Virus record (IMG/VR): IMGVR_UViG_2531839237_000018
DNA: 5,910 nucleotides
Strand: one strand, 5' to 3'
From: a virus
Taxonomy: Duplodnaviria > Heunggongvirae > Uroviricota > Caudoviricetes
Positions 5,413 through 5,637 of the stretch are shown piece by piece (the stretch's first letter is position 1; each line of letters opens with the position of its first letter). The notes beneath the pieces were generated by a model, which saw nothing but the letters and a program-made list of their open reading frames with translations, had not been told where the DNA came from and did no database searches. A program made the translations under genes and the position numbers.

Positions 5413-5637
5413 TCAACACACTGGCTGTAATGCAGCGGATACCATGCGGCATTTAGCGGCATTCATCGTACACTCAACGGTTAGCTCTTCATTCGTGGCA
5501 TTCACCTGAAAGGTCCTGGAGTGTAATTGCGTACATTTACCACTGAACGAACCTTCAACAAGAACACGACCACGCTGCAAAATACGGAACGGAATTGTTC
5601 CCTGAAAAGGCTTTACGGTTACCAATAATTTCTTCAT
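5413..5637 (-). CDS. Hypothetical 74-aa protein immediately downstream of Rz in the late operon
   Basis: ATG at 5637 preceded by GGAG with a 5-nt spacer, 23 nt after the Rz stop. Product MKKLLVTVKPFQGTIPFRILQRGRVLVEGSFSGKCTQLHSRTFQVNATNEELTVECTMNAAKCRMVSAALQPVC (4 Cys, no obvious signal peptide). The track extends it to a TTG at 5655, which I consider less likely. No family recognised. Confidence 0.4.
   Translation of the reverse strand: MKKLLVTVKPFQGTIPFRILQRGRVLVEGSFSGKCTQLHSRTFQVNATNEELTVECTMNAAKCRMVSAALQPVC

Follow-up and report, generated by a model that had tools for sequence, protein, structure and literature searches.

A small gene between the spanin and packaging genes of Enterobacterales prophages encodes a predicted stand-alone beta-sandwich domain

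ORF74, a 74-codon reading frame on the minus strand of the window (the whole stretch of 5,910 nucleotides analyzed here), is a genuine prophage gene, conserved and previously annotated. Its product is predicted with high confidence to be a soluble, single-domain, six-stranded beta sandwich. Judged from gene order and distribution, ORF74 appears to behave as cargo of the slot that separates the lysis from the packaging genes and is known to vary, read from the late transcript. Speculatively, and with a probability that we put at roughly one half, the protein is a dispensable binding module that serves in phage-host or phage-phage conflict. Both the gene and its family had been catalogued before (RefSeq WP_000735655.1; PHROG 2571), and searches of the literature by accession, peptide string or topic found no paper on the protein. 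What is added here is the proof of coding, the fold, the relation between the short and long forms of the domain, and the rules of synteny, with a recurrent phrog_4280 partner. As a real, soluble, late-operon-linked protein built from a shuffled domain, ORF74 aids annotation and changes no concept.

The coding sequence (5413..5637, minus strand) runs, as read from the window, from an ATG at 5637-5635 to a TGA stop at 5415-5413, and a Shine-Dalgarno sequence, GGAG (5643..5646, minus), can be read directly from the sequence 5 nt 5' of the start codon. The stop codon of the Rz gene (TAG, 5663-5661) is spaced 23 nt from ORF74, which bears out the arrangement described in an earlier, sequence-only reading of this DNA, that of an SD-led gene 23 nt past the Rz stop on the same strand. 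The product, MKKLLVTVKPFQGTIPFRILQRGRVLVEGSFSGKCTQLHSRTFQVNATNEELTVECTMNAAKCRMVSAALQPVC, has 74 residues, a mass of 8.2 kDa and a pI of 9.7. It is identical to WP_000735655.1 ('hypothetical protein'), annotated by RefSeq as exactly this coding sequence in O157:H7 prophages, and represents the short form of PHROG 2571. The same reading had described a protein with four cysteines and neither signal peptide nor transmembrane segment, and this holds as well: the cysteines are at positions 35, 56, 63 and 74, and hydrophobic runs, transmembrane segments, signal peptide and lipobox are all absent (maximum Kyte-Doolittle(19) of 0.76).

Reading frames of this size are common by chance, as the window carries 71 ORFs of at least 30 aa, and by itself the length of ORF74 is unremarkable. 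On this ground, ORF74 could be a chance ORF or a conserved non-coding element that is not translated, but this is essentially excluded. The pairwise dN/dS lies between 0.13 and 0.64 for all informative pairs among 11 alleles (down to approximately 62% amino acid identity), and the variable columns in these alleles are in excess at the third codon position (34, 31 and 52 at positions 1, 2 and 3, respectively). In addition, the predicted fold is confident, some homologues that are recognized at the protein level have DNA too diverged for megablast, and ORF74 has no match in Rfam.

ORF74 is present in 1,244 of the 5,426 complete E. coli genomes searched with blastn, about a quarter, and it is also found in Stx2a, Stx2c and Stx1a phages and in H-19B; the identical protein is encoded on at least 1000 contigs. 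When 1.84 billion cluster representatives were searched with a profile, 46 relatives were retrieved, mostly of 70-82 aa, and the remote relatives have the motif MKxLxVT...F.V.Q.G..L..D..SGK...Y.R.Y.VDA.D..L.VEH in common. In a second profile search, relatives were found in Escherichia, Salmonella, Citrobacter, Enterobacter, Cedecea and Yersinia, every one of them named 'hypothetical protein'. Profile matches to two multi-repeat proteins (P0089 and P0100) were dismissed as spurious, these being cystatin and HYR repeat proteins. It is because of the conservation, the dN/dS below 1, the confident fold and the remote homologues that we consider ORF74 a gene, and its family is small and confined to temperate phages of Enterobacterales.

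With hmmscan, ORF74 matches phrog_2571, a family annotated as 'unknown function' (E 2.8e-28, 99.9 bits, residues 1-73), and the alignment covers columns 100-172 of the 291-column profile. The same profile is matched by the distant short relatives P0086 and P0097, and by P0067, a protein of 286 aa. ORF74 has no match at the curated thresholds in Pfam, NCBIfam or PADLOC, and when 24 family members were compared to Pfam, only scattered matches below the gathering thresholds were obtained (E of at least 0.008). No enzyme family was matched in the Pfam and NCBIfam scans of ORF74 or in the Pfam scan of the 24 relatives, and a profile search of PDB sequences with the family returned only noise (E of at least 0.02). 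The statement in the sequence-only reading that the product cannot be placed in a family is thus correct where characterized families are concerned. In the sensitive profile and structure-prediction searches that were proposed at the time, PHROG 2571 was the sole match, and no significant match to a known fold was obtained; nothing in Pfam, NCBIfam, PADLOC, PDB or BFVD assigns a function to ORF74 by homology or structure.

The long form of PHROG 2571 is represented by proteins of 280-286 aa (P0067 and P0070) from N15-like (Ravinvirus) E. coli phages. These proteins carry the ORF74-like domain as their middle third, at residues ~100-170, and are extended by a helical/coiled-coil part at the N-terminus and by an alpha/beta domain with weak P-loop-like matches at the C-terminus, whereas ORF74 is a stand-alone short form that lacks both the N-terminal helical and the C-terminal alpha/beta parts. 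The position of the domain differs between proteins: it is placed after the coiled coil in P0067, is C-terminal in P0094 (225 aa), and is N-terminal in P0084 and P0090. The tail of P0090 resembles the C-terminus of phi80 orf66 and N15 gp59, of which the former is the uncharacterized gene just before cos in phi80. Homologues of phi80 orf66/N15 gp59 are also found fused to, or 3' of, an ORF74-like domain in other loci (L109/L110, ~4989-5498; L107, L108, L112 and L113).

From these comparisons, ORF74 is a stand-alone version of a shuffled phage domain and not a broken piece of a larger one, because the short forms have their own start at the domain boundary, a length that is conserved throughout the family, and are under purifying selection. 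The embedding of the domain in the 280-286 aa proteins of N15-like phages, and the 291-column length of the PHROG profile, could be taken to indicate that ORF74 is a pseudogene remnant of the 280-aa long form. This explanation is largely refuted and very close to being excluded, as the ATG of the short form, preceded by an SD of its own, coincides exactly with the domain boundary, dozens of lineages with identities as low as ~25-35% maintain its length of 69-82 aa, the sequence is under purifying selection, and the window has no flanking traces of the other parts of the long form. A fragment of a longer disrupted gene, as the sequence-only reading had allowed for, is therefore not what was found; the short form is an independent and widely conserved gene with its own start.

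The AlphaFold2 model of ORF74, based on an alignment of 21 sequences, has a pLDDT of 90.1 and a pTM of 0.76, and consists of six strands (residues 2-8, 11-21, 24-35, 39-45, 52-55, and 66-71) and one short helix. For the long form of 286 aa, AlphaFold2 gave a model of poor overall quality (pLDDT 60), but the beta domain is reproduced in it at a pLDDT of 74-80, located between the N-terminal helical part and the C-terminal alpha/beta domain. A Foldseek search with the long-form model returned FlgD, lectins and KaiC/thymidine-kinase-like P-loop folds, all with E above 1e-3. The ORF74 model itself gave no significant match (best E 0.28 in PDB and 0.07 in BFVD), with recurrent weak matches (TM 0.4-0.6) to beta sandwiches of small size, namely LecB-type and BC2L-C lectins, CBM36/60, the FlgD hook cap, C1q-like heads and tail-fibre proteins.

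The nature of these non-significant best matches, together with the presumed late expression and the placement of the domain after a coiled coil in P0067, is what could be expected if ORF74 were a virion-associated or morphogenetic protein, either as a free-standing 'knob' or decoration domain or as a decoy similar to a domain of the tail tip. The C-terminal receptor-binding region of the tail tip protein J (PF12421/PF09327) is, like ORF74, a beta-sandwich module, and there are weak and roughly collinear hints of similarity: Phage_Tail_Tip (gpJ) is matched weakly by the N-terminal part of P0094 (E 0.0017) and by a neighbour in L100 (E 0.037), FNIII-A_GpJ is matched weakly in two family members (E 0.02), and the best hhalign placement of ORF74 on lambda J falls in the receptor-binding domain (probability 0.35%). 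All of these scores are below significance, however (Foldseek E of at least 0.07, hhalign 0.35%, Pfam under the gathering thresholds). Moreover, ORF74 and its relatives occur with at least four unrelated head/packaging modules, which is hard to square with a specific capsid or tail partner, and sister phages whose structural genes are identical lack the gene. We consider a role in the virion decidedly improbable. PF12421 was matched by none of the 24 family members and J structures are absent from the top 50 Foldseek matches in PDB; homology to lambda gpJ was rejected, all scores being at noise level, and is kept as a lead only.

Cysteines and charge are not conserved throughout the family. 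C35 is invariant and C56 near-invariant only within the clade of E. coli and Salmonella, and C63 and C74 appear and disappear together with the type of C-terminal allele. In the wider family the number of cysteines ranges from 0 to 5 (0-2 in the distant members) with no conserved cysteine column, so that the four cysteines noted earlier are not a feature of the family. The family lacks the conserved cysteine pattern of a Cys-rich, zinc- or disulfide-dependent small protein. Similarly, the basic charge is not family-wide, as the pI of the members varies from 4.8 to 9.8.

When the loci of intact relatives are compared, the ORF74-like gene is nearly always the first gene past the spanins and before terS. 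It is separated from the Rz stop by 22-24 nt in O157-type prophages, in Salmonella and elsewhere, and its start overlaps that stop by 4 nt in Stx2a/Stx2c-type phages; the conservation downstream of Rz in related phages, proposed as a check in the sequence-only reading, is thus observed. Distant members (30-50% identity) are found directly after i-spanins of two Pfam families, PF03245 and PF10721/DUF2514. Exceptions are some members that lie 230-1300 nt from the spanin, or after a Q or a GNAT gene. The surroundings are otherwise variable, both on the lysis side (GH24 lysozyme or M15 peptidase, with differing holins) and on the packaging side, where at least four unrelated modules occur 3' of ORF74 relatives (Terminase_2+HNH, Terminase_4+HNH, Nu1/gpA, and DUF1441/gpA).

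The slot shows presence/absence polymorphism. It contains ORF74 and a 46-aa ORF in the window, whereas three sister prophages with the terL of the window (L145, L147, at 4125-4439, and L149) lack ORF74 and carry either a gene for a PerC-family regulator or nothing other than a YlcI gene of 75 aa. Scans for promoters and terminators around ORF74 gave no excess over shuffled sequence. It is because of the placement with varied lysis and packaging modules, the patchy presence and the lack of such an excess that ORF74 would qualify as cargo that is read from the late transcript. The position had been described before as one that is often taken by accessory or host-interaction genes in lambdoid phages, and this is borne out, as the slot holds PerC, an Acb2-like gene and the Tai/Ati pair of phi80.

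In lambda, the Rz-terS slot is occupied by Bor. Bor, PerC/Pch and Acb2/Tad1-like cargo share with ORF74 the slot and a patchy presence among near-identical prophages, but none is homologous to it. The hallmarks of a Bor-type moron, which are a signal peptide with lipobox, a promoter of its own and an orientation antisense to the late operon, were not found in ORF74: it lacks a lipobox and any other lipoprotein signal, no promoter-like site precedes it, and it points in the same direction as Rz and the late genes.

Several loci contain further genes next to the ORF74-like gene. An Acb2/Tad1-hairpin (PF24729) anti-CBASS/Thoeris-like gene is located directly 3' of a distant homologue and 5' of Nu1 (L100, 5314-5598; L101, 3316-3600). 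More often, a gene for a protein of phrog_4280, a family annotated as 'unknown function' (~70 aa, MFVENNLKADPDNQGWVLGW...), is found ~40-70 nt 3' of the ORF74-like gene. It was identified in L004, L087, L089, L097, L104 and L105, and in 6 of 16 distant viral loci (examples of the pairing are L004 2688-2903, L087 4265-4471, L097 3176-3391, L104 449-670 and L106 1556-1798, among others), and the pairing is kept even at ~30% identity of the ORF74 homologue. Alleles of ORF74 that end in ...LLPVS/Y accompany the phrog_4280 partner, whereas the ...QPVC alleles, which include that of the window, are without it, and no remnant of the partner was found in the window. The two genes may form a two-gene module, or recombination may have one of its boundaries within the 3' end of ORF74. 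Homology of ORF74 to a PHROG 10235 neighbour was tested and rejected.

The close association with spanin genes raises the possibility that ORF74 is an accessory lysis factor, made with Rz/Rz1 and modulating the last step or the timing of lysis. The gene is immediately 3' of the i-spanin gene and often translationally coupled to it (gap of 22-24 nt or overlap), and this adjacency is kept at 30-50% identity and with the unrelated spanin families PF03245 and PF10721. Nevertheless, ORF74 does not resemble a known lysis protein: it has neither the N-terminal transmembrane segment nor the lipobox and cysteine of a spanin, no match to PF03245 or PF06085, and not the single transmembrane segment that is the minimum for a holin or antiholin. 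Without signal peptide, lipobox or transmembrane segment, ORF74 differs from the soluble domains of spanins, which are periplasmic. The small holes made by pinholins do not release cytoplasmic proteins. The cassettes associated with ORF74 are of the pinholin/SAR-endolysin type (PMC8136144; PF04971 holins were found here), with small holes. Furthermore, the three sister prophages have the same Rz, endolysin and terL without ORF74, and some members of the family are remote from the spanin gene or follow Q or GNAT genes. A function in lysis is therefore unlikely. The sequence-only reading had suggested an accessory lysis or host-interaction factor, of which the second part agrees with the accessory and host-interaction genes in this slot, whereas the argument for the first is one of position.

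In intact relatives, ORF74 would be transcribed from the Q-dependent late operon and be translationally coupled to Rz, and the protein would consequently be made late, in the cytoplasm, alongside the lysis and virion proteins. We propose that it would there bind another protein, or possibly a glycan, and would act in conflict rather than in lysis or assembly. The model for such a role is phage phi80. Its immunity gene taiEcA (orf63), which lies antisense in the interval from Rz to the packaging genes, blocks tail assembly of other lambdoid phages, and its atiEcA (orf64), a small late-operon gene between Rz and cos, neutralizes TaiEcA (He et al., 2024, PMC11364771). Like ORF74, AtiEcA is small (76 versus 74 aa), is encoded between Rz and the packaging module, and is in the sense orientation in a Q-dependent late operon, and in both cases the slot also holds an antisense gene. 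In contrast, no sequence or profile similarity between the two proteins is detectable (hhalign probability 0.18%, E 0.33), and the antisense neighbour encodes a YlcI/YnfO protein of 61 aa at ORF74 versus a Tai protein of 204 aa in phi80. Homologues of TaiEcA were found neither in the window nor in ~150 fetched loci (tblastn; only phi80 itself matched), and no Tai or Ati homologues were found in the ORF74 loci. Membership of ORF74 in the AtiEcA family was rejected on the hhalign result (0.2%) and on the lack of an adjacent antisense Tai gene. By analogy, ORF74 may work like an Ati without belonging to the Ati family, acting as AtiEcA does when it neutralizes a prophage-borne immunity protein.

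We consider such a use in conflict more likely than a role in lysis. Several points argue against it. Anti-defence proteins are more typically expressed early than late, and ORF74 would be a late gene. There is no homology to AtiEcA, no Tai and no match in PADLOC; in addition, the tight linkage to two unrelated spanin families could equally well fit a lysis role. It is conceivable, though rather unlikely, that ORF74 and its relatives constitute a new late-operon family of counter-defence or decoy proteins, made up of free-standing beta-sandwich binding modules. Members of such a family would neutralize immunity that is carried by prophages or satellites and aimed at late or virion components, or, alternatively, would bind a ligand of the cell envelope once released at lysis; AtiEcA of phi80 would be analogous in logic and is unrelated in sequence. 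The Rz-terS slot is emerging as a hotspot of immunity and anti-immunity (Tai/Ati, Acb2-like, PerC/Pch regulators). If the protein does have a counter-defence or lysis-modulating function, ORF74, which is widespread in prophages of pathogenic E. coli, could influence competition between prophages or the spread of Stx phages.

The copy of ORF74 in the window is in a damaged context. Positions 1-5842 are 99.9% identical to an O157:H7 prophage, in which ORF74 follows a complete holin-YdfR-lysozyme-antirepressor-Rz/Rz1 cassette, and the two differ at only three sites, by SNPs at 4018 and 4080 and by the deletion of one nucleotide from a T run at ~1106. The deletion splits a gene that encodes a fusion of prohead protease and major capsid protein (645 aa), leaving a 191-aa protease ORF (1044-1619, minus) while the capsid part continues in another frame to the start of the window. 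This gene is either a pseudogene or the product of a homopolymer sequencing error, and an error fits equally well.

On the other side of ORF74, Rz is present only as a 3' stump (5661..5842, minus) of the last 60 codons and TAG, which is 100% identical to the Rz of the O157:H7 prophage (155 aa when complete) and matches Pfam Phage_lysis (E 4.6e-10, profile positions 68-125 of 126). The 3' end of the embedded o-spanin gene Rz1 (5702..5842, minus; proline-rich, ...KPPAPPAWAMMPP...) continues in frame from the 5' part of yphB, a chromosomal gene for an aldose 1-epimerase (5828..5910, minus), in a YphB'-'Rz1 fusion that joins YphB residues ~1-228 to the end of Rz1. The prophage-derived DNA ends here: positions 5843-5910 are the interior of yphB and not phage, and the switch occurs at a microhomology of 11-15 nt (5828-5842) at the yphB::Rz junction. 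Since this junction is absent from the 5,426 complete E. coli genomes, the GTDB representatives and the IMG/VR contigs that were searched, either the strain has a deletion or rearrangement of its own at this site, or the junction is an assembly chimera.

With only the last 60 codons of Rz and yphB beyond it, the lysis cassette itself lies outside the window, and upstream of ORF74 the window has neither holin nor endolysin genes, and neither Q nor pR'. The yphFEDCB operon is oriented in the same way as ORF74, and expression of this copy would be possible only by read-through from the yph operon and not from the phage late promoter. Expression with the late and lysis genes, as presumed earlier, is thus reasonable for the intact relatives, in which ORF74 starts 23 nt after the Rz stop or overlaps it, but at the truncated Rz, fused here to yphB, arguments from gene order fail for the copy in the window.

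The variable cargo slot extends beyond ORF74 as far as the HNH/terS packaging genes, and this remaining part of it (4560..5412, no strand assigned) holds a 46-aa ORF, a YlcI/YnfO gene and ~190 nt of unannotated DNA. The 46-aa ORF (4916-5056, minus; WP_000347013.1) is very hydrophobic (GRAVY 1.11) and has no family match; it may be a small membrane peptide. A promoter-like sigma-70 -35/-10 sequence is located 5' of it in AT-rich DNA (5174-5146, minus). The YlcI/YnfO gene (DUF3950, 61 aa; 4601-4786, plus) is antisense within the late operon, between ORF74 and HNH, in a 'non-contiguous operon' layout as that of taiEcA in phi80, without homology to Tai, and ORF74 occurs without YlcI/YnfO in other loci. 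Rfam and tRNA scans of the window found nothing relevant. Directly 3' of ORF74, the unannotated ~190 nt (5218-5412) are conserved at 95-98% identity in many E. coli genomes from which the adjacent sequence is missing; RNA folding of this DNA revealed nothing unusual (z-scores of 0.0 and 0.8). An ORF on the minus strand that overlaps the DNA 3' of ORF74 (5198-5452) matches phrog_6954, 'Rz-like spanin', at 2e-13.
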